From Carcharhinus longimanus (Eukaryota), in the NCBI GenBank assembly GCA_030264375.1, contig JASCQW010000032.1:54898225-54962224 (forward strand): DNA of 64,000 nt, given 5' to 3'. Numbering within the stretch: the stretch's first letter is position 1; every line of letters begins with the position of its first letter. The notes beneath the pieces were generated by a model that was not told the origin of the DNA, did no database searches, and saw nothing but the letters and a program-made list of their open reading frames with translations. A program made the position numbers and the translations under genes. This document shows positions 14,200 through 56,124 of the stretch, in pieces.

Positions 14200-15477
14200 G
14201 AATCCTAGCCATAACTTAATTGGTGAGAGATTGCAGGTTTCCGAGATGCAGAGATATCTGGATATCTTACTGCATGAATGGCAAAAGGTTAGTATGCAGA
14301 TTCAGCAAGTAATTAGTAAAGCTAGTAGAATGTAATTGTTTATTGTGAGAAGAATTGAATATAAAAGTAGGGAGGCTATGCTTCCTGTTTTACGTCTGGA
14401 ATATTGTGTACATTATTGGTCTCCTTCTTTAAGGAAGGATGTAATCACATGGAAAACACTTCAGAGAGGGAACATGAGACTAATACCTGGAATGGGTGCA
14501 TTGTCTTATAAGGAAAGTTTGCACCGGCTGGGTATTACCCACTGGAGTTTAGAAGAGTAAGAGGTGACTTGATTGAAACTTAAAAACCTTGAAGGGTCTT
14601 GACAGGATGGATGTAGAAAGGATTTTCCCTTTTGTGGGAGAATCTCGAACTGGGGAGGTCACTGTTTAATAACAAAATGGTTGCCTGTTTAAAACAGAGA
14701 TGAGGGGGATTTTTTTCTCTCAGAGGGTCATGAATCTTTGGAATTCTCGTCTACAAAAGGCAGCAAAAGCAGAGTTCTTTGAATATTTTTAAGGCAGAAG
14801 TAGATGGATTCTTTATAATCAAAGGGTTGAAAGGTTATCGGGAGTAGGAAGTATGTTGGGTTGTAGTTACAATTAGATCAGCCATAATGTTATTGAATAG
14901 TGGAGCAGACTCATACAGTCGAGTGGCCCAATAACATGTACCCCTCATCTGCTCTCACGTCATTTGAGTGTTAAATAGTGGATTGCCTCTTTTCAAGCTT
15001 TTTCTCCTAGGGAGAGAATTATGGAGACTCTAGTAGGCTAAGCTTCTTTTCCTGCAAGTTTTTTTTTTCATTCATTTACAGAACATAGAGTGTCCCTTGG
15101 CTTTGAAAGGTATTCTATAGATGTGGGTATTTTGAGTATTTATTACAGGTCTCTGGATTACTGATCCAGTGACCTAGCCATTATACTACCATACCCCTGC
15201 TTCACTACACTTCCATCACAACTTATATGAAGGGAACTTATATGATAGAATACCCCCAACTTGTCTGGGTGGGTGTAGCTCCAACAACACTCAAGACCAT
15301 TCAGGACCAAACAGCCCACTTGATTGACACCACATCCAAAACATCCACTCCCTCCATCACCGACGCTCAGTAGCAGCAGTATATACTATCTACAAGATGC
15401 ACTGCAGAAATTCTTCAAAGATCCTTAGACAGCACCTACTAAGGAGCTGCTCCTAATTCGTTATGTCTGTATGTTCC
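14200..15477 (+). mobile_element. CR1 LINE 3' part whose terminal tail is split by a 507-bp insertion (14931-15437)
   Basis: LEYCVHYWSP.LRKD motif. The tail reads gagtggccc, is interrupted, then resumes ctgctcctaattcgttatgtctgtatg at 15447. Confidence 0.85.
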
Positions 15478-16556
15478 TAAATCCTGGAATGAGCTCACAA
15501 TATTTTGCTTCAGAATCAAGCATAAGGTCAATTGCTTGTGCCAAACTTTGCAGTTGCCAAAAGCACATTTCTAACCATGTGATTTTTTTTAAGCGACACA
15601 CCTTGGGTGCGAGAATTGTGAGTGGTTGCAGCACTTAAAGGACTGCAAAACTATTTAAAGGGTTATGCACTGTTTGCTGATCAGCAAGCTCTACCACAGA
15701 AAAGAATATTGGGATGGATAAAAAATGTTGCAGAACACCTTTTTTAAATTTAATCGTGAGACACTGGCATCATTGGCTGGCCAGCATTTGTTGCCCATCC
15801 CTAGTTACCCTTGAGAAGGTGGTGGTGAGCTGCCTTCTGGAAATACAGCAGTCCACGTGCTGTGGGTTAATCCACAGTGCCATTAGGGAGGGAATTCCAG
15901 GATTTTGACCCAGCTACTGTGAAGGAAAGGCAATATATTTCCAAGTCAGGATGATGAGTAGCTTTGAGGGGAGCTTGCAAGTGGTGGTGTTCCCATGTAT
16001 TGGTTTGCCTTGTCCTTCTAAGTGGAAGTCATCATGGGTTTGGAAGGTGCTGTTTAAGGACCTTTCATGAATTTCTGCAGTTCACCTTGTAGATAGTATA
16101 TACTGCTGCTACTGAGCATCGGTGATGGAGGGAGTGGATGTTTTGGATGTGGTGTCAATCAAGTGGGCTGCTTGGTCCTGACTGGTGTCAAGCTTCTTGA
16201 GTGTTGTTGGAGCTGCACCCACCCAGACAAGTTGGGGGTATCCTATCCTATAAGTTCCCTTCATATAAGTTGTGTTGGAAGTGTAGTGAAGCAGGAGTAT
16301 GGTAGTATAATGGCTAGGTTACTGGATCAGTAATCCAGAGTCCTGTAATAAATACTTGAAATACCTGCATCTATAGAATACCTTTCAAAACCAAGGGACA
16401 CCCCATGTTCTGTAAATGAATGAAAAGAATTGCGGGAAGAGAAGCTTAGCCTCCTTGAGTCTCTGTAATTATCTCCATAGGAGAAAGAGCTTGAAAAGAG
16501 ACAGTTCACTATTTAACACCCAAATGGTGAGAGAGCAGATGACTGGTATAAGTTAT
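14931..16556. repeat. Long inverted repeat, arms 14931-15437 and 16045-16556
   Basis: Arms align as reverse complements throughout, e.g. agtagcagcagtatatactatctacaag / cttgtagatagtatatactgctgctact. Confidence 0.95.
15740..16226 (-). mobile_element. Second CR1-clade LINE family 3' end
   Basis: - strand encodes AAPTTLKKLDT..DQAAHLI..IHSLHHR.SVAAVYTIYK; same family as 61165-61690. Confidence 0.8.
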
Positions 16557-20584: not shown

Positions 20585-21590
20585 GGGGGCAATCTTACCA
20601 TCTCGCCCTGTTGGTCAAAGGGTGGAATGAGCCGATAATATCGCGAGAGAATGGGAAAATTGGGTTCAAGCTCGATTTCTCACCTCTCGTGATCTTCCCA
20701 GCACTGGATATCCAGTGAGATCAATCCCTCACCCAAAATGGGGTGATTATAATATTTAAATTTAAATTCATCACTTGCCTTGGTGATGAAGGCCCTCACT
20801 GGCGAGGATCATGTATGGTCCCTATCAATCAGGACCTGTCGGACTGGAGGTCATTGCGGCTCTCCTGGGAGGTCAGGGGTGGGGTGGTGCCCCTTGGGCG
20901 GTGCCAGCTTGGCATGCCTGCCTGGTACTACCAGCCTGACATCCTGGCACTGTCAACAATCACACTGGTAGGGTGTGTAGGGAGGGGGTGGGGTCTGAAG
21001 AGGGCAGGGCTTAAGGGGAGGCAGGGAGGGGCACTGAACACTCTACAATAACGAATGTGGGGGAAGACTATGTGCACCCTGCATCTGGTGATCTTCAACA
21101 GAAAATAGCAATGAACTAGGATTGGATGAGAAAAAGAGTGAAGCGAGTAGGACAAGGAAGAGACAAGCATGGAGTAGAGGAGGTGGAGAAAATGAAGATA
21201 TGGAGAAGGAAAGGTGAGCTGGAGCACTGGGCAGGATTCTGTGTCCTCCCCATAGTATCTTTCTTGTGGCAGGAGATAGTGTGCCTTTGACTGGCGATGG
21301 GATTTTCTGGTCCCACCAAGTGATCAACCTTCTATGCGGGCGGAGGGGGGATCAGGTTGCTCGTGCAGGAGGGGAACAAACTGCTGCAGAGTCGATGGCG
21401 AGGGTGGGAAGCAGTGACAGCTCTCTCTATTCTGTGCCGTTGCACAAGAGCGGAGAGAACTGTGCATGCATGACAGCGTCCTCTGCTAAAATGTGCAGCT
21501 TTCGGATGAGTTTAGGCCCTGCCTCTCCCCTTGCTGGCAGAAACAAATCTTGCTTAATTTTCTCCTCAGAGTGTGGCAAGATTGGATTTT
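20585..21590. mobile_element. Non-autonomous Harbinger-like element carrying an inserted copy of 22724-22952
   Basis: ggggcaatcttacc ... ggcaagattg ends; GC-rich interior shared with the 11.0 and 61.7 kb elements. Confidence 0.55.
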
Positions 21591-22606: not shown

Positions 22607-22810
22607 GCTGGAATTTTCTGGCTGTTTGTGCGAGCAGTACCTTCTGGTCCCGCTGACTGCGCACCTTCACTATAGTTTCCTAGCAGCATGGGATGGAATC
22701 AGTGGGAAATCCTATTAACATCAGTGGGACCAGAAAATCCCATCGCTAGTCAAAGACACATCATCTCCTGCCACAAGAAAGACACTGTGGGGAGGACAGA
22801 GAATCCTGCT
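22607..22810. mobile_element. Short MITE
   Basis: ggctggaattttct ... agagaatcctgct ends; internal inverted ttctggtccc / gggaccagaa. Confidence 0.55.
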
Positions 22811-23690
22811 CAATGCTCCAGCTCACCTTTCCTTCTCCATATCTTCATTTTCTCCACCTCTTCTTCGCCTCCTCTACTCCATGCTCCTCTCTTCCTTGTC
22901 CTACCTGCTTCATTCTTTTCCTCATCCAATCCTAGTTCACTCCTATTTTCTGCATTTGTTCTCCTTCCTATGTTTTATTCTCAATGTCTTATCTTTCACC
23001 TCTCTCTATTTCTTTTACTTCAGTCTGTGCTGTAAACTTTTTCCTCCTGTTCCTTCACATCTTCTTACCTCTCCATTTTTTCTTCTCTTTCCCCTCTTTC
23101 ACTTTTACTTTCCCCTTTACTTTTGCCTACCTTTTTCCTATTCTCCTCTTTTTCTGCCTTGAGTAGTTCACAGCTTGTTCCTTCATTCTCTGCTCTGTCA
23201 CTTCTCTTTACGTAAGTCTGTCAATTCTTTCCTCATTTTCTTCACTATGACAAATAAAAGGTCAAGAAAGAAAAATAATGGATAAGTGACTTGAAATATG
23301 GATAAGTGACTTGAAATATGGATTTGCCTTGATCTAATGGAATGGTTAAACAGGTTTAAGACTCTGAATACCCTATTCCAGTGTATCCTGAGTTATAACT
23401 TCTCTGCCGCTATAATTTTGTTTTCCTTATCCTTTATTATCCAATATTTTTCTTAACTGTTCCATCTTCCCTTTTCTTTATCATGTCCATCGTCTTTCCC
23501 TCCCTTTCTTTAACTTCCTGTTTCATTTTATCTTCCTTGTCTTTGTCCCAGTGCCTCTTCTTCAGTTATTTTTATGTTTCTTTTGTGTGACTTCATTTCA
23601 TTTTCTTATTTCTTCCCTTCTTACTTTTCTATTTTAACCTTGTTTCCTATTCCTTCCCATTTATTTCTGCAACAGTTCTCCAGCTTTGCT
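22811..23690 (+). repeat. Polypyrimidine low-complexity tract, including a 20-bp tandem duplication at 23278-23323
   Basis: Strong C/T bias; atggataagtgacttgaaat occurs twice in tandem. Confidence 0.8.
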
Positions 23691-27410: not shown

Positions 27411-28035
27411 GCAAAATTAAGCTCTGTAACGCTGGTGATGGCAGGTGTTGTGATACGATGTACATCTATTTTTAAGAAGGCGTATCTTAAACTGATGTCA
27501 ATCACTGCCACCAAGAAAGGTTGTGAAAGGATCTCCCCTGACTGTACTCAGAATACAGCAATACGTGGCTACACGGTCTCTCGGTTTACACGATGCATAT
27601 AGTTTTATCTTCTGACATTTTTTTACCAATTCCTATAGTATGATTGGCATGTCAGTGTTGAATAGAAGATTTATCAAATGGCAGTGTAGTTTTTGAAGGT
27701 TTGATTGAGATGCATAATCATCTTCAAACCTTTCACTTGCATCAGAAGAACTGATGTGGAAGTGAGACAACAGTTAAGTTCTAACTCACGCTGTGTAAGT
27801 TATTGTGCAGAAGTGGAGGGATGCTACATACGTAGTTTCATTCTGGGATATCATAACTCACTCCAGCCAGTCAGCACCAGGTTCTAGTAATATTGTTCAA
27901 ATTTTGGGGAGCTTAATTGGAATAAGCCTACCTGCTGCAAAGTTAAATAATTAATGAATCAATACTGGAGGATCTGGCTCCAATCAGAACTCCAAAGAGT
28001 GAGGAATTTGTTGCTGCTGCTTCGTATCCCCTCAG

Positions 28036-28110
28036 TGAGAAGTCTCACAGCACCAGGTTAAAGTCCAACAGGTTTATTTGGAATCAAAGCTTTCAGAGTG
28101 CTGCTCCCAG
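28036..28110 (-). mobile_element. Penelope-like terminus with hammerhead core deleted
   Basis: Reverse complement of ggagcagcactctgaaagc..caaataaacctgttggactttaacctggtg. Confidence 0.75.
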
Positions 28111-28621
28111 GATGGAGACATCTCCACCTCATACTATCCCTTCAGGAGGTGGATGGGGTGGAACACTGGGACATGGGGGGAGTGCTTAAACTTCGGGAAC
28201 TGGCCTGGAAAGAATAGTCCACTCAGTAATAGCTCCCAAAAACTCCTAATAGCCAGAGAAAGCTACAATTATTACTTTTTTGCTCTTTAAGATTTCCCTT
28301 TGGACCCTTCCATTTTCATGCCAAAAATCTATATTTTGTGAACAGAGCTTCAGTGAGCACAGGAAAGCAGAAACAGTCCAACAGTACCAACTATGACAAG
28401 ACAGTTCACAAGCTGTTCAACAGAGGTACAGCAAATCAGAAAGCTGCAGAAAAACCATTTGGGCCACCAAATGCATGAATATTTATTCCCCTTCCAGATG
28501 ATTTTAATAATCCAGCAAAAAGGATGACTACAACATTTCTAACACTCCATTAATAGGCAATGGAACTCCTGTCTGAGGTTATTTTATTCCGATAATGTGT
28601 AAGGCTAGGTTTTCTTGGCCT

Positions 28622-34631: not shown

Positions 34632-35129
34632 TCATTTATTAGTGTCACAAGTAGACTTACGTTAACGCTGCGATGAAGCTACTACAAAAATCCCCTAGTC
34701 ACCACACTCCAGCGTCTGTTCGGGTACACTGAGGGAGAATTTGGCTTGACCACTCCACCTAACCAGCACATCTTTCAGACTGTGGGAGGAAACCAGAGCA
34801 CCCAGAGGACACCCATGTAGACACGGGGGGAATGTGCAGATTCCGCACAGGCAGACACCCAAGCTGGGAATTGAACCCAAGTCCCTGGTGCTGTGAGNNN
34901 NNNNNNNNNNNNNNNNNNNNNNNNNNNNNNNNNNNNNNNNNNNNNNNNNNNNNNNNNNNNNNNNNNNNNNNNNNNNNNNNNNNNNNNNNNNNNNNNNTAG
35001 TCTAACCGATTTATTTGATAATATTATCAAATTATCTATTATCAAATAAATCGGTTGGACTAAAACCTGGTGTTGTCAGACTTTTTGCTGTGAGGCAGCA
35101 GTGCTAACCACTGTGCCACCGTGCCGCCA
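34632..35129 (-). mobile_element. V-SINE, tail type B, interrupted by an inverted Penelope pair
   Basis: SINE head is split at gctgtgag (34890-34897 and 35087-35094). Confidence 0.88.
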
Positions 35130-38286: not shown

Positions 38287-38912
38287 ATTTATTATTTATT
38301 TTTATCAGTGTCTACAAGTAGGTTTACATTAACACTGCAATGAAGTTACAGTGAAAATCCCCAAGTTGCCATACTCTGGCGCCTGTTCGGGTACACTGAG
38401 GGACAATTTAACACGGCCTAATGCACCCTAACCAGCACATCTTTCAAACTGTGGGAGGAAACGAGAGCACCCAGAGGAAACCCACTGAGATACGAGGAGA
38501 ATATGCAGACTCCATACAGACAGTGACCCGAGCCGGGAATGGAACCCGGGTCCCTGGCACTGTGAGGCAGCAGCGCTAACCCGCTGTGTCACCGGGAATG
38601 GAACCCGGGTCCCTGGCGCTGTGAGGCAGCAGCGCTNNNNNNNNNNNNNNNNNNNNNNNNNNNNNNNNNNNNNNNNNNNNNNNNNNNNNNNNNNNNNNNN
38701 NNNNNNNNNNNNNNNNNNNNNNNNNNNNNNNNNNNNTACAAGTAGGTTTACATTAACACTGGAATGAAGTTACAGTGAAAATCCCCAAGTTGCCACATTC
38801 CGGCATCTGTTTGGGTACATTGAGGTAAATTTAGCATGGTCAATGTATCTAACCAGCACGTTTTTCAGGTTGTGGGAGGAAACCGGAGCACCAGGTGGAA
38901 ACCCACACAGAC
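38287..38912 (-). mobile_element. Two tandem V-SINEs, tail type B, separated by a 100-N gap
   Basis: Copies at 38287-38636 (head segment repeated) and 38737-38912. Confidence 0.85.
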
Positions 38913-41900
38913 AAATGAAAGAACATTTGCTTTAATCAATCCTATTAGTTTTGTTGTCTTTATTACAGAACATAATGAGTTCCTTCTGGATGGTAATCTA
39001 TCTCTGCAACAATACATTCATTTATCAGAAGCATTCATCTTTTGTGGAATTACTAATGCAATATTAAGAACAATTTCCTGACGCAAAATTTTTATCATCA
39101 TTTTAACTGAATTGGAAAAACATCTGAAATATAAATTGTTTGCTATGGTCTTCAGATAGTCTTTATTAAGCTGTGACTATACCGTGCTACTGATCTGGGA
39201 TTCGTATTTACAGATTCGATTTGCACCTTAGTAGCACTTGATTTTACACTGTCAGGTAACGGTGCCATTGTCACATCTAGGGGACAGCTCTGCAAAGTAC
39301 TTACCAGGCATCCTGCCTGATTTTAAATATTTTGAAAGGATGGATAATCACATCTACTTCTTCAAAATAGCTTTGAAATATTCAGCTTTGCATCCTCAAA
39401 CACTTAACAGAAATAGTGAGTCGTCAGGCATCGTATGTGTTGGCTATATTTCTGTGTTGGTGCCTTCACCATTCTGAACCCTCACCTGTACCAACTCCAT
39501 TATCTGCCATCCTTGTGTTGAATTCAAATATTTTTCCTTTCACTTTGGTTTTAATTATTTCAAGTTGCGTCTGACACATGGGCAAATTCTAATTGTTTTT
39601 ATCCCCCCTTTTTCACATTTGTTTCAAAGCTTTATTGTTAAAATGACCATAAAGACTTTTAAAATATGGCATGCCTTCTTGTGTAAATATCTGTTCCAGA
39701 TTGTGGTGAAGGAGCAGCAAGTCTCATGCAAAGGGATTGGCTAAAGAGCATCTGATTGCCTGATTTAAATACCCAGCACAGTTGCAGGACAAATATGTGT
39801 TTCTGTGATTTGTCCTCTGCTCTTGTAGACGATCAGGATCGTAGTAGCAGGATTTGACCTCTGGTTGAACCTCACTGCCCTTTGAAGCAGGTTGGAAATG
39901 AGTCCTTAGTGTCACACGACAGCTACGTTACATGCAATGCCATCTGCAGTTCTGCACTGGTCATCTGGTCAGGAACCGAGGCAGTGCCTTGTTAAACATG
40001 ATACCCTGAGATCTAAATTTTAAGAGCTTCTTTTAGGATGAAATTTGCCCTTCAAGGTCAACCTTATTGCTGCCAGTTCTTGACTTCCACAGCCAATGAA
40101 TATGAGTAACAAAGGGCTGGGGGTTCATGAACTCTGACCCTATCACTTACACTAAATCAGGATCTGAATATAACCTCGGTTGTCACAGCTAATGACTAGG
40201 GATGGGGGTTGGCTGGGGTTACAGGGGTTGGGGAACAGTGCGAGCAGAGAGGTGCATACATTCATATTACACACATTGATTGTATATTTGTCTGTCTTTC
40301 TCTTTTGGCAAAAGCAAGTGTTTCTTTGTGTAATCTCTAATTTGTTCCCTTGGGAATGCTTATAAATATATGGCTATTTATGAACATCTGGGAATGATTA
40401 TAACATGATAATATAAATCACATAAAACTTGCATTTCTGAGATTAATCTACTATTTCTGGTATCCATTATTAGCTGCACTATGGGGTGACATTTTTGTCA
40501 GTTTTTGCAGTAAATCTGGTGCAAGTATTAACTATCAGCACATGCCCTATTATTGCATTGTGGATTTAAACAAAAAGAAAAACAATGGAATGATTATAAT
40601 TACTGGAGTTTAATCAGAATATATTCTGAGGTCAGAATTCAATGTATTATTTGATAAGTATTAATAGGCCGAATTTTGTGACCATCTTCTCCTTTCAGAC
40701 TCAGGATAGTAGGCGTTGGAGAGGGCATGGCAGATAGAAATTGGGCACCATGTTATCTGCACCACTCCTGTTACTTAATCACCCAATCCTGCTCCGACTG
40801 AAATTCTACCAGTGGCAGGGGAGGCATTGTGTTCTCTGTCACCCTTGGGTCAATTGAGGCATTTGTATGGCCAGGGCTTGCCAGGCTGACCCGATGTGAC
40901 ATCCCAAAATTGCTTTCAAGTCCACTTGCTTCCTTGGTGGACCAGCTGCAAGCCCCAGCAATGGCACTACACATAGTGGCGCTGCTTGGACTGGAGGACA
41001 ACACGCCATTTTTTTGTCTGGCAGCTTTCAGAGGTGGTGCTTCCTCTTCAATGAAGACAGCAGTCTCTTCTGAGGTAGTTAAATGCTATTAAATGGCTGT
41101 GGAGCAAACTTGTTACGTTGGGAGCTGGGTCACTCCCAACTTTTGCACCAGGAAATGAGAAACCTAAACATAAAATTCAGCCTCTAATCTCTCAGAACAG
41201 ATATAGGTGAGGGAGGGTAATTGGATATAGATGGGTGTGAATGTTTGTGGCCAGATGGAGATTTGTGGCATCCAGGCACAAAGGGAGGAGTGCAGCAGCA
41301 AGAAGTGTTGTTCTGAGGAGTTCCAAGAATGCTGGGAAAATCAGAGTGTGTAAGTTGGCATCTGAAAGTCCTTTGCCACCCCCCTTCCTGCTCTCTTGAG
41401 GTACTGCATCCTCTTGGTGCACTGTCAGCAGGTTTGAGGGGCTGGACTCCTGCTGCTGACTGCCTCAACTATTTCCATCCACATTTGCTCTTTCACCCAT
41501 TCTTGGGGTAACTTGCCTCACTGCCTGCAACCCCTCACATCCCACAACAGGTAAGTAAGAGCGAGGGGCCTGGAACGCAGCCTTCATAGATCTCTTCTCC
41601 ATTCCTGTAGTTATTAAAGCCTGAAAAATCCAAGTCCCGTTGACCCATTCTAACCCACACCATTGTATGTTCAATTAGAAACTCTTTCTTTGATTGTAAT
41701 TATTGGAGTTCAGTCAAAAAATAATCTTAGGTCAGAATTCTATTATACAATAACTGGTAAGTATCAATTGGCTGAATTTCACTGCCCCTTCCCCTACTGG
41801 TGGGATAGCAAGTCGTGGTGGGGGTTGTAAAATTAGGCACGATGCCAGTGGCTTCACTCCTGTCACCTATCCCTGCCCCTGCCAAAACTGTACCAACAGT

Positions 41901-42629: not shown

Positions 42630-44455
42630 AGAATGAAGCTGCAGGCATTTCCAGGATGGTGCTGGTCTGACGTGTCTTGTTGAACATTGTGTAGCTGTGT
42701 AGACTGTAGCTCCAAGAGGAAGGAGCTGATGAGCACTCTGCAGCGTTGGAAGAGGAGGAGGAATCTGCAGTCAGAGAGTTAGGTGCCAGGGAAGTCCAAG
42801 ACAGACTGATGCATTCTTCAGTTAATCTCTTGCAAGGCATCCACCTGGCATACCAATTCTGAGCCCAGTGTGGCACCCACTGCCCTTGAACTCCCAGAAC
42901 AAAGCAATCCCACAAGCAACAGTTCATTACTCTCACAGACACACATCTCTTGTCTTCAACTCCCTTCATATCATTCTTCACATGGCAAAGGCCACCTGGT
43001 GGGTGAGAGGGAAAAATAGGGAACATGGGACAACAAAACTTTGAAATAAATTATATGACTCAATGACATTAAATAGACATGAAAATTAGCACAGTGTTAT
43101 ACACCTGACTGAATATCCTTGTGCAACCAGAAATATTCCCCTTCCCTTTTTGTAGTACTCTTACATGGTACAATCGCAATGGTTTCAGTAGATTGCACGT
43201 TGCTAGAATTCGTGTTATGACTGCTCCATTGCTGTTGGTCAATATCCTCTGGGTTTTGGAGTCATTGGGACATAAGACAACATGCAGGACTCCGAGTGGG
43301 ATGTGAGGGATCGGGAGTGAAAGCACTTTGAGCAGAGTTCCACATGACCTGTCTCCATCTTTCCTTGCCTGGCATACCCATACTTCCCTGCTCCCCAAGA
43401 CTGGGAGTACTTTGCTGCATCTCAATGAGGCACTGAATAGTCAAGGTGAGGTTTGATTCCATTCTGCTTAAGATGGCAATCTGAGTGTGCAGACAATTGA
43501 TCAGGATGAGCATTCATTCAATTGCCTGCTCTGTCTGATGCTCCATGCAGGTGACCATTCTGTTCATGTATATGAAATTCTGAGACATCGTGCCAGAGAC
43601 TGATTCCTCCATTGTTCCTGTAGTGGTGCCCAGTGCCTCTGGAAAGGCTGACAGAATCTCACACATTATCTGCAGCTCTTCTTCATCAAAAACCCCTGGG
43701 GGTCCACATCTGTGACCAGCTGATCAGGGCCTGGAAAATGCTGCCACCTCCAGTGGTGACTTGCCACCGCTGTCCCTGTCTCCAACAGCTGCCTCTACTT
43801 ACTTGTAAAGTGTGTTTTACTGTATGTCAACCCACCTACCTGTTTTGGAGGATCCAACCAGGTGGATGTACCTGCTATACATACAGACAGCATTGGAAGG
43901 TGCACATGAATCATGTGAAAGCCCATCCTCAGAATAAATGCCTTCAAAGGAATCTTCAACCTCCTCAGGCACATCCCCTGATGGGTGCCTGGACAAGCTG
44001 TGGGAGATGAAAGATGCAAAGTGGAATTGACAAGGTGAGTAAGTCCTAAGTCATTAATGTGCAGATATACATGCCATAATATGCCAGTGGCTTCCATTAT
44101 CAATTCAACATAAGAGACTTTATAAGCCATGTGGTTAGTTTTGTTACCAAGATGTACTGGGGAGACATTCATCTCTCCACCAACAAATGGCCATGCTTGC
44201 TGAGACCCATTGTTGCTATTGTGTCCTCCTCAACAGCTGAAAAGTGTCGATGAGGATGACTGCTGTCTCTCCCTGGCGCTCTGTGCTTCTTGGGGCAGAA
44301 CAAAGAGACTAATGAGTGCAAGGAGTGGAATATTTTGAGAGAATGGATGGAGAACATTTGTGGAGGGTGACTGTGAGGGATGGGGCATGGCATTGTGTGA
44401 GTTTCAGTGCTGGCTGGTTGGATTGGAGATGCACGGAGGCGATGTGTGATGATAG
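42630..44455. mobile_element. Harbinger relic: transposase C-terminus (+) tail-to-tail with accessory gene remnant (-)
   Basis: 42645-42825 reads ISRMVLV*RVLLNIV followed by an acidic tail, resembling HARBI RIVVVCCxLHN. The downstream region resembles 31.6-32.7 kb. Confidence 0.45.
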
Positions 44456-44530
44456 TGTAGTGGTAATGTTACTGGGCTAACAATTCAGAGGCTCCAGGAT
44501 AATCCTCTGGAAACATGGATTCAAATCCTA
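44456..44530 (+). mobile_element. 5' part of a tRNA-derived SINE head, continuing at 49606-49642
   Basis: gtggtaatgttactgggcta..ggattcaaatccta resumes as ttcaaatcctaccacagcaactggtgaa. Confidence 0.7.
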
Positions 44531-44716
44531 TGCATGATGTGGAGGTGCTGGCATTGGACTGGGGTAAACACAGCAAGAAGTCTCACAACACCAGGTTAAA
44601 GTCCAACAGGTTTATTTGGTAGCAAAATCCACTAAGTTCTGGGGCGCTGCTCGTTCGTCAGGTAAGTGGGAGTTCTGTTCACAAACAGGGCACTTAAAGA
44701 CACAAACTCAATTTAC
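44531..44716 (-). mobile_element. Penelope-like terminus (left arm)
   Basis: Reverse complement of 49458-49606; hammerhead degenerate. Confidence 0.85.
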
Positions 44717-44741
44717 TCAATGTACCACACTTTAGGAAGTA

Positions 44742-44895
44742 CAAAGAACAAAGAACAAAACAGTCCGGGAAACAGGCCCTTTGGCCCAACGAGCCCATGC
44801 CGCCATTTTAACATTACAAGTCCCCCCTCCACCCATGACCCTTATCTATGCTTATGGCATTCCACATTGAGGGAAAACTAATTTAGGGACAATTT
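44742..44895 (-). repeat. SINE/CR1-tail-like repeat A, direct copy at 49104-49243
   Basis: (caaagaa)n tail and ggaaacaggccc; the last ~60 nt are identical between copies. Confidence 0.85.
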
Positions 44896-45937
44896 NNNNN
44901 NNNNNNNNNNNNNNNNNNNNNNNNNNNNNNNNNNNNNNNNNNNNNNNNNNNNNNNNNNNNNNNNNNNNNNNNNNNNNNNNNNNNNNNNNNNNNNNAATGA
45001 CATCTGCCCATCCCCCCACCCTCCCCCATGGCAAGAGTGACCCCTAAAGCTGTACTTGTGTATTCCCAGTGTTCTCCCTGGTTCCCTTGAATATTGGATA
45101 GGCTGAGGGTAAATGGCTGCCTGAACGCTCACCTCCAATATCCCCCTCAGAGGCGAAGGCACCAGGTTCACACTTAAGTCGAGCTGTTGTAAATAGTGCA
45201 TACCGAATTTTCGTTATGGGCTCAATATCTAGAGTGTTTGCTAATGAATCAAAATAAGATTCCTGGCATTCTGCAGTGTGTTCTGCATCACTCCGCTAAA
45301 CGAGAATCAAAATTCAAAACTCTGGATTTTGAGCACACGTCGCCATTCCCACAAGATAGTCAAGATTCCAGCCGTAAGATTGAGGAAATAAATATTTTTG
45401 TGTTGGCTGCAATGAGTCACATCAGGAGCTTTTTATTTGACATATTTTCCATTTTGTCTTGGATGTGATTTACACTTGCAAAGCTGCCATTGCAATGATG
45501 CTTGACTGGCATGTGTTCCTCGTGTTTCAGAAAAGAGCAACTTATCATTTCACAAGGAAACTGAAAACATTATTTAAAAATTTGTATCCTATATTTGTGG
45601 TGGCTTACAGGTAGTGAATATCAACATTTGCAGTGCAGTGTTATCAGACTTAGTGTAATGTGAACATGAAGTGTAATTTCTAATCTGACGTGCTTGGAAT
45701 ATCTGTCATGTGTAAACTAAGTGTTACTTGTCTATTTGTGATCAGCTCTTCCAACTTTATGCATTGTGAATGAATTCAAGTTTTCAATATTATCCCAGCG
45801 TAAGTATTTGTAGTTTTGTGTGATTTTTGTAAACAATACAAAAACGTACAGTGGTGAAAGGAGCATAGATATAATCAAACTAATAGAAATAATTAGAACA
45901 ATTTCATCTAATTAAATCAACCTTGAATCATAGAATC

Positions 45938-46058
45938 TCACCTGATGAAGCAGCAGTACTCCGAAAGCTTGTGCTACCAAATAAACCTGTTAAATTTTAA
46001 GCTGGTGTTGGGACTTCTTACTGTGCCTATCCCAGTCCAACGCCGGCATCTCCACATT
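45938..46058 (+). mobile_element. Penelope-like terminus
   Basis: Hammerhead motif then caaataaacctgtt..ctggtgttg..gacttcttactgtg..cccagtccaacgccggcatctccaca. Confidence 0.85.
45939..45973 (+). ncRNA. Minimal type I hammerhead ribozyme motif
   Basis: cac-CTGATGA-a-gcag(cagta)ctcc-GAAA-gc-TT-gtg; one stem II mismatch. Confidence 0.6.
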
Positions 46059-46257
46059 ATAGAACCTTCACTACTCTTTACTGCTGCAAACAACTGAAAT
46101 GGAAAAACACTGGCTGTTCAAGCTTTATTGAGAATAATTTATTTATTTAGAATAAGTGAAACAGCCTTCATCTAGTTATGCTTTCTGGTTCTGCTGTTCA
46201 AAAAAGCATTATGCTTTTTAAACTAAGCTGTTTAACCAACTATTTTTCTGCCTTTCA

Positions 46258-46392
46258 AAGAACAAAGCAAATTATAGCATAGGAACAGGCCCTTGGGTCC
46301 TCCAAACCTGCACTGACCATGCTGCCTGACTGAACCAAAACCCCCTATCCTTCCAGGGACTGTATCCCTCTATTTACATTATATTCATGTTT
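46258..46392 (-). mobile_element. CR1 3' tail
   Basis: caaagaacaaag..aggaacaggccctt..tatccctctatt. Confidence 0.7.
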
Positions 46393-48192
46393 CCGTTCCA
46401 GAAGTTAGCGCTCCAGAATTGAAGGAGAGTTAACTTTGCTGGCTGGAACAGAACATAGTCATACCTCAATGGACAATCTGCAAGAGCGTACTTTCAGCTA
46501 TAAAAGTTGTAAACTCCCTACAGAGATGACAGTACACATTGCAGAATTTACCCCTTGTTCCATATGTCCCATAGCTGTTGGCAATTGTTGAATTAGGTCC
46601 TCAATTTCCAAAAGCCTGACTCCTGTTTGGAGAGTCCAAATTTGAAATGTAGAAGTAACAAAGATCTATTCTGTTTTATCAGTCGTTGGTCAGGAAAAAA
46701 GATGTTTATTTTTCACGTAATTTGTCAAATCGCTTACAGACTTATAAACTTTGAACCAAGTTCAGTGGATTTTGTGCAAACGCTTTTGAATGGTGACATA
46801 CGTAACTGTTCATGTGCTGTGCTGTCATCTGAGAAGTGCTCTTGTTTTGTCTCAGTTCAAGATCTGTGTACCCCAGGTATTGGGATCTAGAAAGATGGTG
46901 ATCTCTCTCACTCAGTACAGTTCCTCAGCCAGGAGAGAGTGGAAAAGCCACTTGTTAGGGCTCCTTTTCTAGCCCCCTCCCCATTTGGGTATCCTCAAGA
47001 GGACACTTCAGTCACACATGCTATTGCTTGAAGTCACCTCTATTCCAAAAGAGATGTCCAGTAACTTTCATGCAATTGTCACTTGTGTGAAGATTCTTGG
47101 ACTAGGGACTCCCAGGTTAACAGCCCTTCTCTGTTGCCAGTCCTCCATTACCACAGGATTGGGGAATTAGACCTTGGCATGTGGTTTTAATTAACATGGG
47201 ACTATAGGGCACCATCATTTGAGGGCATGTGGACAGTGGCTTGGTGATCAGATTTCCATAAAGTGTCAAACTACCCAAGATACCTGGCCACTGCAACCAC
47301 CTTCACAACTGATGAGATGCACAGTCTTCCTTTTGTTTGTTTGCTGTTCAGGACTTTTTTACATTGCACTTTTCTGGCACCTCCATTTCACTTGGGCCAG
47401 CTATGACACCTAACTAGGTGCAAGGAACTCCTGATGGCATTGCTCAAGGGATCGTCGGTATCCAGGAGCCTCTCCTCCAGATTATGGTGGTTATCCACAG
47501 TGAAGGATTTTCACAATGCTTGACATGATTTTCCTTTTATTGGGAGTTTCTTCAGAAAGGGTAACAAAATAAGTACGTTTGACTCTGTTTCTAGCTATCT
47601 AATACAATTTTTCCTTCATAAAAAATATAATACAGTTTTTCAATGAAGGCCATTGACCAGAACTATAAACTGGTATTTTGGGAAGAATCATCGCATTGAT
47701 GGCTCAAGTGGAAAATATCATTGATTGTCCACCAATTTCATTAGTGTGTTATTTATACAGGGCACTCCAATGACCATACTTGAGTCCAGCGTGCCTGTCT
47801 TCCTCTCCTGTATATTTTTATTTGTATGAAAAAACTTATCCATTTTGTGAAATTAATGTGTTAAATTTGTTTAGATTTAAGCAATGTGCTGCATTGGAAG
47901 TACTTTTCTTGTTTGGTGAAAACATTTTGAGGATGGATATTATTGGAAAGAAAAAGCTAATACCGCGTATGTTCTTTAATGTTTCTAAAGCACACAAAAA
48001 TGTCAGGATGTTAATAAACAAGAGATGTGCTGACTACTTGTCTTTAAACTTCATCTTGAATAAAAAATGAAGCTGCAATCCTGAATTATTCTGCTATTTT
48101 CTTTCCATATCTGTTTTCTCCTGGTGGTATAATGGCACAAACATGCTGGCCTTCTGGGGTGTCCATTATACAGCTGCCATTTAGGGACACTT

Positions 48193-48452
48193 CATAGAAT
48201 CATACAGCACAGTAGGTGACTGCTCACCCCATTATATCTGTTTGCCTATTGAAAGAGCCATCCAATTTGGTGCTCTTAAGTGCTGCAAATTTATTTTTGA
48301 AACGTGTATCCAATTCACTTGGTAGGTTGAATCTACTTCCATCACCTTTTCAGGTGGTGCCTTCCAGAATATCACAACTTTTTGTGTAAAAAAAAAGTAG
48401 TCCTAAAGCTTATGCTGCCAAATAAACCTGTGTTGTGAGACTTCTTACTGGG
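48193..48452. mobile_element. CR1 3' tail (-) followed by a short Penelope end (+, 48402-48452)
   Basis: catagaatcatacagcacag...; aaagcttatgctgccaaataaacctg..gtgagacttcttactg. Confidence 0.65.
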
Positions 48453-49457
48453 CTCGAAGACTGCAGGAGTAAGTCAGGTAGTGTTTGGGAGATTGCTATG
48501 GCTTTTCTTTTTGTTCTCCACTTCTTTTAAGTAAACGATTAGCTAGGAATGCTGTAACTAATTACAAAGCTCAGAGAACAGCTAACTCAACACAGACTGC
48601 TTGGGGATCAGACCTGGCAATCTTTAGCTATTTTTTCTTATCTGTTCATTAAATAAATTTGTCCTGCAATCAAGGGAGCCGTTCAGTTTTTCATTGAATT
48701 GTTCACTATAGTTCAGTTTGCTGATTTAATTGACATGTGAACCTATGACATGTTTGTAAGTTGCATTTGTGCTCTACAGAGAAATATTTATAAATAAATG
48801 ACAATGTGAAAAAGCTCCTTTTTATGATACTTGCCATGTTGAAAAATAGGACTGCAGTTATACTTCATTGAAATAATTGACAAATTGAAAGTGACCTGGA
48901 TGTTTATTGTAACAGGTTGTGTGTGGTAACTAACATCTTTGGTACTTAATTTGTTAAAACCATTAATTTATTAGTGTGCTAACCAGAAAAGGAATGTAAT
49001 CTGAAATGAAGTAAGCAAATAACTTAGCCTCAAAGCACACTGACATGGAAAACATTTATTGTTAGTAGTGAGAAAATTTGTTATTGTTTTCACGTTTATA
49101 GATCAAAGAACAAAACAGCCTGGGAAACAGGCCCTTTGGTCCAACGAGCCCGCGCCGCCATTTTCACATTACGAGTCCCCCTCATGACCCTTATCTATGC
49201 TTATGGCATTCCACATTGAGGGAAAACTAATTTAGGGACAATTTATTACACCAATCAGCCTATCAGTATGTGAAATCATTAGGGAGGGTGCAGAAACAAT
49301 TCACAAGGGATCCCAGGTATAAGGAACTACAGTTCATTGTGCTAGAAACTATGATCCCTGCTCACAGAAAACAGCTCTCAGGACTCCAAGCTTTTTGGCA
49401 GTCTACTTGTCAGTGACTTTTTAATTCAATCACTTCATTTTCATCTGTTTACTCAAC

Positions 49458-49606
49458 GTAAATTGTGTTTGTGTCTTTATATGCCCTGTTTGTGAACAGA
49501 ACCCCCACTTACCTGACGAAGGAGCAGCACTCCGAAAGCTAGTGGATTTTGCTACCAAATAAATCTGTTGGACTTTAACCTGGTGTTGTGAGACTTCTTA
49601 CTGTGT
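49458..49606 (+). mobile_element. Penelope-like terminus (right arm)
   Basis: Inverted match to 44567-44716; intact hammerhead core. Confidence 0.88.
49509..49545 (+). ncRNA. Minimal type I hammerhead ribozyme motif with intact core
   Basis: ttac-CTGACGA-a-ggag(cagca)ctcc-GAAA-gc-TA-gtgg: CUGANGA and GAAA boxes, stem II, palindromic AGCU at stem III, CUA cleavage triplet, short stem I. Confidence 0.72.
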
Positions 49607-49654
49607 TCAAATCCTACCACAGCAACTGGTGAAATTAACAACATTGGGTGCATA

Positions 49655-50800
49655 AATCACTGAAAAGTGACAGGACAGGTTGAGAGAGCAGTTAATAAAG
49701 CATACCGTACCCTGGGCTTTATTAGTAGGGGCATAGAGTACAACAACAAGGAGGTAAGTCACTAGTTCAGCCTCTGCTGGAGTATTGCTTCCAGTTCTGA
49801 GCATCACATTTTAGGAAGTATGTGAAAACATTAGGGAGGGTGCAGAAACAATTTTCAAGGGATCCCAAGCATAAGGAACTACAGTTCATCGTGCCAGAGA
49901 CTATGATCCTTGCTCACAGAAAAGGAGTTCAACAACTCTCAGGAAGCTAAGTTTTTTGGCTGTCTAGTTGTCAGTGACTTTTTAATTCAATCACTTCATT
50001 TACATCTGTTTTCCACGTTTCTCTCAATTCACAGAATTGTTACAGTTCCTTATGTTTGGAACAGGGTGGCACAGTGGTTAGCACTGCTGCCTCACAGCGC
50101 CAGAGACCTGGGTTCAATTCCCAGCTTAGATCACTGTCTGTGTGGTGTTTGCATGTTCCCCCGTGTTTGCGTGAGTTTCCCCTGGGTGCCCCTGTTTCCT
50201 CCCACAATCCAAAGATGTATGGGTTAGGTGGATTGGCCATAATTACCCCTTAGTGTCAGGGGGGCCAGCTAGGGTAAATACAGGGGGTTATAGGGATAGG
50301 GTCTGGGTAGGATTATGGTCGCTGCAGACACGATGGGCTGAATGGCCTCCTTCTGCACTGTAAGATTCTATGATCATAAAGATAAGAGTAGAGAAGTTAT
50401 GACTGTTTTTTTTCACAGGGAGAATAAGGTTGAGAGGAGATTTGATCAAGGTGTTCAAAATCATGGGTCTGGGCAGAGTAGATAAGGAGAAACTGTTTCC
50501 ACGCATGAAAAGATCGTGGGGCCACAGGTTTAAAGTAATTAGTAAAAGAAGCAAAAGTGATATGAGAGGAAAACTTTTTATGCAGTGAGTGGTTAGAGTT
50601 TGAAATGCACTGCCTAATAGTGTGGCAAGAGGCAGATTCAATTGATGCATCCAGAAGAGAATTAGAAAAGGAAGTCTGTGTAGTATTTTAGGGAGAAGTT
50701 AGGGGAACGGCACTGGGTGAATTGCTCATTCAGCGAGCCAGGGAAGAAAGATGGGCCAAATGGACTCCTTTTGAACTGTAACAATTCTGTGGTTCTGTGA
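49655..50800 (+). mobile_element. CR1 LINE 3' part, interrupted at 49888-50385
   Basis: LGFISRGIEY..LEYCFQF, resuming RLRGDLIKVFKIM and ending in tail ctgtaacaattctgtggttctgtg. Confidence 0.85.
50060..50373 (+). mobile_element. HE1-type SINE, tail type A
   Basis: ggtggcacagtggttagcactgctgcctcacagcgccagagacctgggttcaattcc ... gggctgaatggcctccttctgcactgtaagattctatga. Confidence 0.93.
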
Positions 50801-50904
50801 ATTGATTGACAGACCTGGAAAACAGATGCAAATGAAGTGATTGAGTTAAATCGTCATTGACAACCAGATTGCTGAAAAGCTTGGGTTCCTCCTTTCTGTG
50901 AGCA

Positions 50905-51222
50905 GGTCCAAATATTTGTTTACTAGCTCCTTATTCCCCATTTTAATTTCTTCTGTCTCTGTCTCTCAGGGATCACACTTGCTTTTGCTAATCTCTTCCT
51001 TTTTACATGCCTGTAGAGGATTTTATAACCTGTTTTTCTGTCTCTTGCCAGTTTATTCTCATTTTCTATTTACTCTTTCCTTATCAATCTTCTAGTCATC
51101 CTTTGCTGAATTCTAAAATCCTCCCAATCCTCAGACTCGCTCCTCACTTTGACAACATTATAATTCTCTTCCTTTAATCTAATACCATCTTTAACTTCTC
51201 TCGTTAGCAACGGTTGGACCAT
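50905..51222 (-). mobile_element. CR1 ORF2 internal fragment
   Basis: - strand ENKLARDRKTGYKILYRHVKRKRLAK, CR1 linker-like. Confidence 0.7.
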
Positions 51223-51912
51223 AACTATTCTACAACATGCAACACAAAATATTTCAGATGAGGATTTTGTTTCATTAATAATGTATATGCACGTTTAATG
51301 TTGTTTATTCGATAGCAGAGAACGGATTCAGTTGTGCCACTGAACTGACTATTAATTAAGAATCTTTTATTAATTTAAGACTGAAATAGTCACTCCTCAC
51401 TTGCTTATCTGCAGGATTTGGTCATTATTAATAATTTTGAATGGAAATACTCCATTCCCAGGGGTCATTTTGCCCAGACATGATCATTATACTTACAACA
51501 GAAGCAATGCTGAAAAACCTTTTTTGCTAATGCATCACTCTATATATTTTTGCTGCACGCATGACTAATAGTAATTTTTTTTAAAAAGTAGTCTGAATAA
51601 TGTCATCTTTCTCTTTAGTACAGGGAAGCATATTTAAATACTTTCGCTTCCTGAGGAGAGGTTAACATTGAAAGAAAAAGTCTTAGTCACAATGCTAACT
51701 CCCCAGAGATGTTTGACATGCATGATGCGGAGATACAGAACTAGCAAGGGAGATACTCCAGTACTTTTTGACAGATGGAATGACTATTGTGTAGTGGGGA
51801 TATGTAGGAACAGGTGTGGTGCAATAATGTGATGTGCAGACTCCATCCCCATTATCATCAGCGTCTGGGAGAGCAGATGGGCAAAGAAAACCATCAGAGA
51901 CCACGGCTTGTC

Positions 51913-54900: not shown

Positions 54901-56124
54901 TTGGCGAAGAATTATTCCCCATCACAACTGTTTGGGTGGGGATCAATTTCCACGACTTAATCTCCTGTGTGAAATGCCCATGAATGCGTACTGGTGGCAA
55001 ATGACAGATAAGGCAGTTGTTAGGCCGCATGATTATGATCATTAGGAGCTTGACGTTAAATTGAGCAAAACTGGGGACAGCAGGTGCTGACATGTTCTAC
55101 TCATTTTTGGGGGCTTGTTAAAGTGATCCTCAGACAAACCAGTGGAAGTTTGTGGTGAAAATGACATTTTTTCCAGGAGAAACAGCAGTAACTCCTCCTG
55201 CCTCCACAGCCATTGGATTGGATGCATTGTTGCCAGCCTGGTGTCACTCACACTCTTATATATTCATCTACCCCTTTCCCCCCACCCCAATTCCACCCCC
55301 TCCACCCCTACCCAGCCCCCCCNNNNNNNNNNNNNNNNNNNNNNNNNNNNNNNNNNNNNNNNNNNNNNNNNNNNNNNNNNNNNNNNNNNNNNNNNNNNNN
55401 NNNNNNNNNNNNNNNNNNNNNNNNNNNNNNNNNNNNNNNNNNNNATCTGGAGCAATGGACCTGTATCTCAGCATTCAAGCACGGATAAATGGTGAAAAAT
55501 AATTGGGATTTTTTTTTTCTCACCATTTATATCCAGCAATTGCCCTCATCCAAGTGGTAATTATTCAAATATAAGCCTTGACAGTGTGCGATAGGAGAAT
55601 ATTTCACCACGGGAAATAAATTATAGCTGAGGTCAATTATGCTCTCACCTGATAATTACAAATGCACATTTCCAACAGGGGCTGTAGGATAACAGGCAGG
55701 AATGGGGAACCCAGCTGATTTTTATCTTCCTTAATCCAGAGGCACTTCTACCACCAGACCAGCTGAGATCAAACAAGAGAACAACAGGCAGCAAGGATTG
55801 AACCTGGAACTTTATTCGCTCTTGGACAAATTTACTGAGCTGTCTGACAGGCATTTTTTCATATATCGCTCCTGTGAATTTTGAGATTACAGCGAAATAT
55901 TTACTCAAAATGTAAATCAATGCATCAGGATTATGACTTTCAGTAGATAATGAAGAATTAAAGTGTCAAATCTTCCAGTCTCCAGACTGCTGGAAACCCT
56001 AAGGGCAACTGAAGGCCTGTTTCCAAACCCTATGGAAGCCACCTCCAGCCATCTGACTAGCCCTGCCAAGTGGATGTGATCCAACAGCCCAAGCACCTGA
56101 CTAATCCCCACAACACAACTCAAT

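Follow-up and report, generated by a model that had tools for sequence, protein, structure and literature searches.

A filler-bearing Penelope insertion in the shark Carcharhinus longimanus and its probable enlargement by a genome-assembly error

Introduction

Is the 5-kb insert that divides a short interspersed element (SINE) in the genome of the shark Carcharhinus longimanus a unit with inverted Penelope ends that carries genomic DNA, or a stack of familiar repeats that has been inflated in some other way? The question is posed by positions 44456-49642 of a 64,000-nt stretch of contig JASCQW010000032.1 (assembly GCA_030264375.1, positions 54,898,225 to 54,962,224 of the forward strand), referred to here as the window, within which the uniqueness of motifs was checked on both strands. 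An earlier sequence-only reading had described four nested layers: a SINE split by inverted Penelope arms, the arms split by a copy of neighbouring DNA, and that copy split by a 4.5-kb cargo bounded by a direct repeat (repeat A). The locus is most likely an ordinary stack of transposable-element fragments of about 730 nt, and the 4.1 kb of cargo within it are most likely a genome-assembly error. Between its target-site duplications (TSDs) the insert measures 726 nt with one copy of A, compared to 5075 nt as assembled, and the joint account, in which a real insert of about 726 nt was blown up to 5 kb by the assembly, is given a probability of roughly 70%.

The order of layers proposed earlier, with the SINE head outermost, followed by the Penelope pair, the local copy and element A, is supported, and all of the junction coordinates proved to be real and match letter for letter. 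Each of the real layers belongs to an already known kind, and the locus probably has no mobility or function of its own. The copies of agta which border the 4.5-kb layer do exist, but this layer included a gap of 100 N (44896-44995) that had gone unmentioned, so that 100 placeholder bases were counted into its length. The names SacSINE1, HE1 and CR1 are our own assignments, based on the appearance of the sequence. The parts of the locus are as follows.

44456..44530, plus strand: 5' half of a SINE head derived from transfer RNA, cut within the B-box and ending in the left target duplication (44520-44530)
44531..44566, minus strand: Penelope tail of 36 nt, on the left arm only, 72% A+C on the element strand
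44567..44724, minus strand: left Penelope arm (pseudo-long terminal repeat, pLTR), 5'-truncated, with a mutated hammerhead core, ending in the 13-nt tip 44712-44724
44725..44741, plus strand: left stub of the filler, matching 49804-49820 and ending in agta
44742..44895, minus strand: copy 1 of repeat A, the 3' end of a retroposon of presumed CR1/HE1 type with a simple-repeat tail, cut off by the gap
44896..44995, no strand: assembly gap of 100 N, starting on the base after copy 1 of A
44996..49099, no strand: cargo, 4.1 kb of genomic DNA of ordinary character that contains old repeat fragments of its own and probably belongs elsewhere
49100..49264, minus strand: copy 2 of repeat A, a hybrid (49100-49182 from another family member, 49183-49244 equal to 44834-44895, 49245-49264 this locus's truncated 5' end)
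49265..49447, plus strand: main part of the filler, beginning with the second agta, a direct copy of 49817-50008 across a junction specific to this locus
49448..49605, plus strand: second tip sequence (49448-49460), followed by the right Penelope arm, which lacks a tail and contains an intact minimal type I hammerhead motif
49606..49640, plus strand: right target duplication (49606-49616) and remainder of the SINE head
49804..50011, plus strand: template of the filler, comprising a fragment of open reading frame (ORF) 2 of what we take to be CR1 and part of an older inverted patch

A Penelope inverted insertion in a SINE head

About 100 nt of the SINE head, presumably SacSINE1-like, are present at the locus. 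It was said to be split by ttcaaatccta, and this is borne out letter for letter, the two copies of the 11-nt duplication (44520-44530 and 49606-49616) occurring at these two places alone in the 64 kb. There is no close reference copy of the head elsewhere in the window, where the best outside matches have E values of 0.27 or worse, and ARAGORN reported no genes in 44000-51000.

The target duplication encloses two arms of an element that we assign tentatively to the Penelope clade. Over 150 nt (44567-44716 and 49458-49607) the arms differ by 13 substitutions, a divergence of 8.7%. Inverted arms had been claimed for 44531-44716 and 49458-49606, and the inversion is real, but 44531-44566 has no partner on the right and is the 36-nt tail; the hairpin to which the arms were said to rejoin is a reconstruction only, as its intact form occurs nowhere in the window. 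The two outer layers together are a standard Penelope inverted insertion, with an 11-nt TSD, two head-to-head arms and one 36-nt tail: the arms are inverted and 5'-truncated between the duplications, a tail in the range of 30-40 nt is found on one end, and a hammerhead motif is present. There is no ORF in the Penelope locus. Of seven Penelope arm ends in the window, four lie at about the inner site and three at the outer site.

Similar insertions are on record for other Penelope-like elements (PLEs). In those of Adineta vaga, inverted pLTRs are flanked by TSDs of 8-10 nt, one of the arms carries a tail of 31 nt, and the inverted junction is palindromic (PMC3846280); tails of 30-40 nt are recorded in three sources (PMC3846280, PMC11167929, PMC8557442). 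The locus shares with the insertions described in these papers the head-to-head 5'-truncated pLTRs, the TSD (11 nt here and 8-10 nt in the A. vaga examples), the tail on one arm and the junction palindrome, as well as the occasional presence of DNA other than the element between the pLTRs; unrelated DNA between solo pLTRs has also been seen in A. vaga (PMC3846280). It differs in the absence of an ORF and in its spacer, which is a copy of about 200 nt of the target's own flank, placed inside a duplicated tip. How Penelope elements form inverted ends is still described as undefined (PMC8557442). In vitro, the Poseidon protein of the anole cleaves and extends both target strands, and two start sites delimit the tail (PMC11167929). 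The anatomy of the shark locus, in which the B-box of an old SINE head is interrupted with an 11-nt stagger, is consistent with cleavage by a Penelope element according to the same chemistry, and complementary DNA (cDNA) may then have been primed from both target strands, with the outer start site yielding the tailed arm and the inner site the tail-less arm.

The inverted ends had been described as ribozyme-bearing, which applies to the right arm only, where the predicted core (starting at 49513) is intact, and not to the left arm, where it is mutated. A hammerhead descriptor that was modelled on the minimal hammerhead of PMC4209133, and written after the sequence had been seen, matches once in the window and in none of 100 simulated windows. 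The right-arm motif resembles the minimal type I hammerheads of metazoan PLEs (PMC4209133) in its conserved core, the extra base after position 9, the G10.1-C11.1 pair, the palindromic positions 15.2-16.2 and the short helix I, whereas its helix II comprises 4 bp as opposed to 7-8 in the Schistosoma families. A search of the 64 kb against Rfam gave no match at the gathering score, and a search of 44000-51500 returned seven weak matches up to E 10, none of which was a hammerhead. Folded as RNA monomers, the right and left arms have z scores of -1.12 and -0.12, respectively. Self-cleavage of the hammerhead would probably take place in a dimer, and the minimal hammerheads of metazoan PLEs are indeed described as requiring dimers and cleaving weakly (PMC4209133). 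A term search of a retrozyme preprint (bioRxiv 10.64898/2026.07.22.740005) returned nothing on inverted structures.

A templated filler between the arms

The third layer sits in the tip of the palindrome. The 13-nt sequence tttactcaaYgta was correctly said to split this tip; its two copies (44712-44724 and 49448-49460) differ by one C/T exchange and occur nowhere else in the 64 kb. The tip was also thought to hold a copy of neighbouring DNA, made up of the stub and 49265-49450 and taken from 49805-50011, and so it does. The stretch 49265-49450 differs from 49817-50011 by 17 substitutions in 186 nt (9.1%) and one gap, and the BLAST identity of 87% overstates the age of the filler since the 9-nt gap is counted. 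The stub (44725-44741) agrees with 49804-49820, in register, at 15 of 17 positions, and no further site in the window comes within 3 mismatches of the stub; at least 14 of 17 matches at a fixed place would arise by chance with a probability of about 3e-6. The source is located 188-395 nt downstream from the target site. The filler was copied from 49804-50011, because in a three-way comparison eight sites group it with this source while two and four sites favour the alternatives.

The template is itself a composite, and the filler crosses a junction in it that is specific to this locus. The presumed CR1 fragment is split at a 4-nt duplication (49886-49889 and 50374-50377) by an HE1-type SINE together with an inverted patch copied from 50773-50906, and upon in-silico removal of SINE and patch the decayed CR1 reading frame becomes continuous again. 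That the inverted patch is older than the filler is backed by the three-way grouping and not by divergence (13.7% as against 9.1%, p=0.27).

The third layer is real and as old as the arms, the counts of substitutions in arms and filler (13/150 and 17/186) being indistinguishable (Fisher p=1). The window contains two other two-armed Penelope insertions, at 28036-28133 and 34998-35094, and both have junction fillers, one of 11 nt (28108-28118) and one of 15 nt (35023-35037) that is accompanied by a 10-nt tip duplication. Fillers are therefore present in all three two-armed insertions found in the window (11, 15 and about 200 nt) and duplicated tips in two of them. At the locus itself, microhomologies are found at both ends of the filler.

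According to the earlier model, a finished Penelope palindrome was extruded as a cruciform, broke repeatedly, took in the local copy and later acquired the 4.5-kb unit. The centre of the tip duplication lies close to that of the 5-nt loop, which is what symmetric nicking of a cruciform would produce, and a later break at the finished palindrome has perhaps one chance in three of being the origin of the third layer alone. As a whole, however, this model is very improbable. Repeated breakage of a cruciform is unnecessary because arms (8.7%) and filler (9.1%) are of the same age and the other two-armed insertions have fillers as well. Moreover, with the filler in place about 200 nt lay between the arms, so that A did not insert at the tip of a cruciform, and A has the tail of a retroposon, is truncated at its 5' end and is flanked by a TSD of its own, with tail lengths that differ between the copies; it lacks TG...CA ends, a primer site, a polypurine tract and coding capacity. 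One insertion event is enough to account for the arms and the filler, and two steps close in time are also allowed.

A single event could have proceeded by microhomology-mediated end joining (MMEJ), in which templated insertions arise when an extension is aborted, the end dissociates and a microhomology of 1-3 nt primes it anew on flanking DNA (PMC12426944). In such a scheme, the two truncated cDNA ends would have been joined via microhomology-primed, template-switching repair: a 3-nt microhomology would have allowed one end to anneal to the other and to be extended on it by about 10 nt, resulting in the 13-nt tip duplication; after its release, synthesis would have resumed at a T-run that lies 395 nt from the target site and continued over about 200 nt of flanking sequence before the final joining. 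The likeness to MMEJ insertions lies in the patchwork junction from re-priming on the flank. Several observations weigh against a single event of this type. Equal divergence cannot separate one event from two that were close in time, the inverted arms may have been homogenised, and the filler of about 200 nt far exceeds the usual Pol-theta insert of less than 25 bp (PMC12426944). A filler copied from the local flank between Penelope arms with a duplicated tip was not found described in the literature searched, which covered few subscription papers and individual papers in part.

Alternatively, the DNA enclosed by the pLTRs may have been moved in trans by Penelope. There is a precedent in a nonribosomal peptide synthetase (NRPS) gene of A. 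vaga, where host DNA between pLTRs is flanked by a TSD (PMC3846280). This is hardly credible for the present locus, where the interior was built in place because the filler reproduces the flank of this very target, including the locus-specific junction, and A was inserted afterwards.

Element A and its two copies

The innermost layer had been regarded as a 4.5-kb unit that caused the split at agta (44738-44741 and 49265-49268) and that begins and ends with A as a direct repeat. The two agta copies are there, but judging from its sequence the element to which this duplication belongs is a single retroposon end of about 170 nt. A is the 5'-truncated 3' end of a retroposon on the minus strand, of what we presume to be CR1/HE1 type, with a 4-nt duplication of its own, and it inserted into the filler at a later point. 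Compared to seven retroposon ends in the window, A scored above all 300 shuffles with three (scores of 36, 50 and 51; shuffle maxima of 31, 34 and 32), marginally with a fourth (33, equalled in 8 of 300 shuffles) and gave no signal with the remaining three. With its simple-repeat tail, the truncated 5' end at 49264 and the agta TSD, A fits the 3' end of a SINE or of a long interspersed element (LINE) alike.

Two copies of A are indeed present, but they are mosaic, copy 1 is cut by the gap, and the left junction of the cargo is unsequenced. The copies show ten differences, all of them in the first 89 of 151 columns, and are identical over the 62 nt that touch the gap. Each copy begins with the tail, and the tails are of unequal length and the flanks different, which is the pattern of independent insertions. 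The left flank of copy 2 is that of another locus while its right end joins the filler of this one, from which it follows that copy 2 is a hybrid of two loci, made either in a cell or in a computer.

Readings of the unit as a long terminal repeat (LTR) element, including terminal-repeat retrotransposons in miniature (TRIM) and large retrotransposon derivatives (LARD), as a DIRS element or as a composite transposon were rejected, as there are no LTR hallmarks and no coding capacity and the repeats are mosaic. No TG...CA termini, primer-binding site or polypurine tract were found on the copy 2 side on either strand, the copy 1 side being hidden by the gap. What the unit has in common with composite transposons and with LTR, TRIM or LARD elements are direct repeats around an interior and a 4-nt duplication outside; unlike these, A is a tailed non-LTR 3' end, and there is neither a coding region nor a second copy of the whole unit in the 64 kb. 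The composite-transposon-like unit that was suggested earlier is improbable: since the source of the filler is the flank of the target itself, the unit was probably not delivered as such but formed in place.

The assembly gap and the cargo

The gap at 44896-44995 is probably a placeholder whose size is not meaningful. We consider it quite probable that only one copy of A exists here and that the 4.1 kb were brought in by misassembly. A short-read assembler would have collapsed this A with another member of its family over the 62-nt identical block; a chimeric contig consisting of the other locus, A and the right flank would have been built, and the true left contig would have been set ahead of it, with an unsized gap in between. 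Among the exact repeats of the 64 kb the 62-nt block is the longest, it ends at the edge of the gap, and the clustering of the differences between the A copies outside it has P=0.004. The window contains 11 gaps, three of which are exactly 100 N long; a duplicate of at least 25 nt is present at the edges of two of these three, compared to none of the eight others. At the second such gap (38637), 57 of 58 positions of the edge block are identical, including five shared private changes, whereas the remainder agrees at 92 of 117 positions and shares none; in the 14 other pairs among the six copies of this family, 40-49 of 57-58 positions of the block agree. Gaps between duplicates are a primary mark of false duplications (PMC9516828), and here a gap separates the duplicated pair at the exact end of the 62-nt block. 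As in the false duplications described in that paper, the duplicated block flanks a gap within one scaffold and is identical at the edge, but in this case only part of a short repeat is duplicated and there is foreign sequence in between. The inverted structures of PLEs often trouble short-read assemblies (PMC8557442).

A number of observations count against misassembly. The 62-nt block contains no CpG, and with non-CpG differences alone the clustering has P=0.039; the clustering test was chosen after the data had been seen; other repeats of the window contain exact runs of 52 and 43 nt away from gaps; and the third 100-N gap (34898) has no edge duplicate and seems to hide a short stretch, so that such gaps do not always mark a misjoin. 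The G+C content of the cargo (38.4%, with 43.3% upstream and 39.7% downstream) does not mark it as foreign. Finally, a recent and real crossover between two copies of A would yield the same letters.

Such a crossover is the basis of an alternative in which the cargo is real and recent, and a DNA circle or a long conversion tract (4.1 kb and another A) recombined into the local A via the 62-nt block, giving hybrid A, cargo and hybrid A. It predicts the exact letters, two hybrid copies with different tail lengths and flanks, and is helped by the weakness of the non-CpG heterogeneity, and the gap could simply conceal the right flank of the other locus. We nevertheless regard it as unlikely. The event would be rare and very recent, as the block is without differences; its sole unsequenced junction coincides with an unsized gap, and gap 38637, at a distance of 6 kb, shows the pattern again, for which a habit of the assembler is a simpler explanation than two such events. 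A correctly assembled 4.1-kb genomic circle that integrated very recently inside a filler-stitched Penelope hairpin is doubtful to the same degree.

Another alternative invokes a heterozygous rearrangement that was merged by the assembler. One haplotype would have suffered a deletion by crossover between an upstream A and this A, leaving cargo, hybrid A and right flank, and the other would be intact, with the scaffold holding one contig of each. This accounts for the hybrid copy 2 and for an unsized or negative gap, and false duplications are tied to heterozygosity as well as to gaps (PMC9516828). It is quite improbable, given that BLAST and reading by eye detected neither a further part of A nor a continuation of the cargo in the window, and that simple collapse of a repeat needs no variant.

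The cargo itself resembles ordinary genomic DNA. Of 34 stop-free stretches of at least 45 aa, none reached the Pfam cut-off, and one gave a weak match to DUF4227; no reverse transcriptase, integrase, recombinase or transposase was found in the cargo interior among these 34 stretches. No Pfam match was obtained for 20 additional stretches, of which 19 belong to the 53 frames of at least 100 aa. Exon order was of no use for testing the placement of the cargo, as a crude splice scan listed 75 candidates in the window with two in the cargo, none of them convincing. The gap at 55323 was inspected by eye as the true home of the cargo and rejected because nothing links the two.

The cargo also contains repeats of its own. 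One solo Penelope arm (45937-46060) has the tail together with a target duplication, now decayed, of about 9 nt, and another (48396-48453) is internally deleted and tail-less. The start of the cargo contig (44996-45380) looks like a minus-strand LINE 3' end in a state of decay, presumably of L1/Tx1 type, without a Pfam match. At about 44000-45000 the G+C content falls from approximately 43-45% upstream to 38-40% downstream, and it stays low until about 57 kb.

Implications

As it stands, the locus consists of nested repeat debris and a probable assembly error and matters little, and its striking part, a 4.5-kb cargo in a composite unit, hangs on an unsequenced junction. A caution follows for this assembly, in which gaps of 100 N can fake elements bounded by direct repeats. 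If fillers hold genome-wide, the many short copies in the shark would provide a dataset for a model in which cDNA is primed twice and the ends are joined. If the cargo were true, a 4-kb circle would have entered through one crossover that involved two dispersed copies of a short retroposon, and the locus would preserve in the germline a case of repeat-guided integration of circular DNA.

Other repeats in the window

A second SINE, apparently of HE1 type and on the minus strand (34890-35094), is interrupted by a short Penelope palindrome whose 10-nt tip duplication encloses a 5-nt filler, and the 100-N gap at 34898-34997 hides the start of its left arm. The Penelope insertion at 28022-28145 has a tail-less antisense arm, an 11-nt filler with a tiny fold-back, a tail end of about 15 nt and a decayed target duplication of about 14 nt. 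At 38287-38913, two SINE copies lie across a 100-N gap and are as diverged as unrelated copies outside the 58-nt edge block; a 45-nt tandem duplicate also adjoins the gap, and the arrangement is a probable assembly artefact.

Downstream of the locus (49641-50906), the HE1-type SINE is preceded by a patchwork of about 170 nt, mostly an inverted copy of the 3' end of the presumed CR1 and its flank (50773-50906), which adds another retro-insertion junction with a locally templated filler. Inverted duplications of local DNA, 200-500 nt long and 88-89% identical, occur at 14931-15437 and 16045-16556 and at 21099-21316 and 22724-22952, with spacers of 0.6 and 1.4 kb, respectively. Local templated copying looks frequent in this genome.

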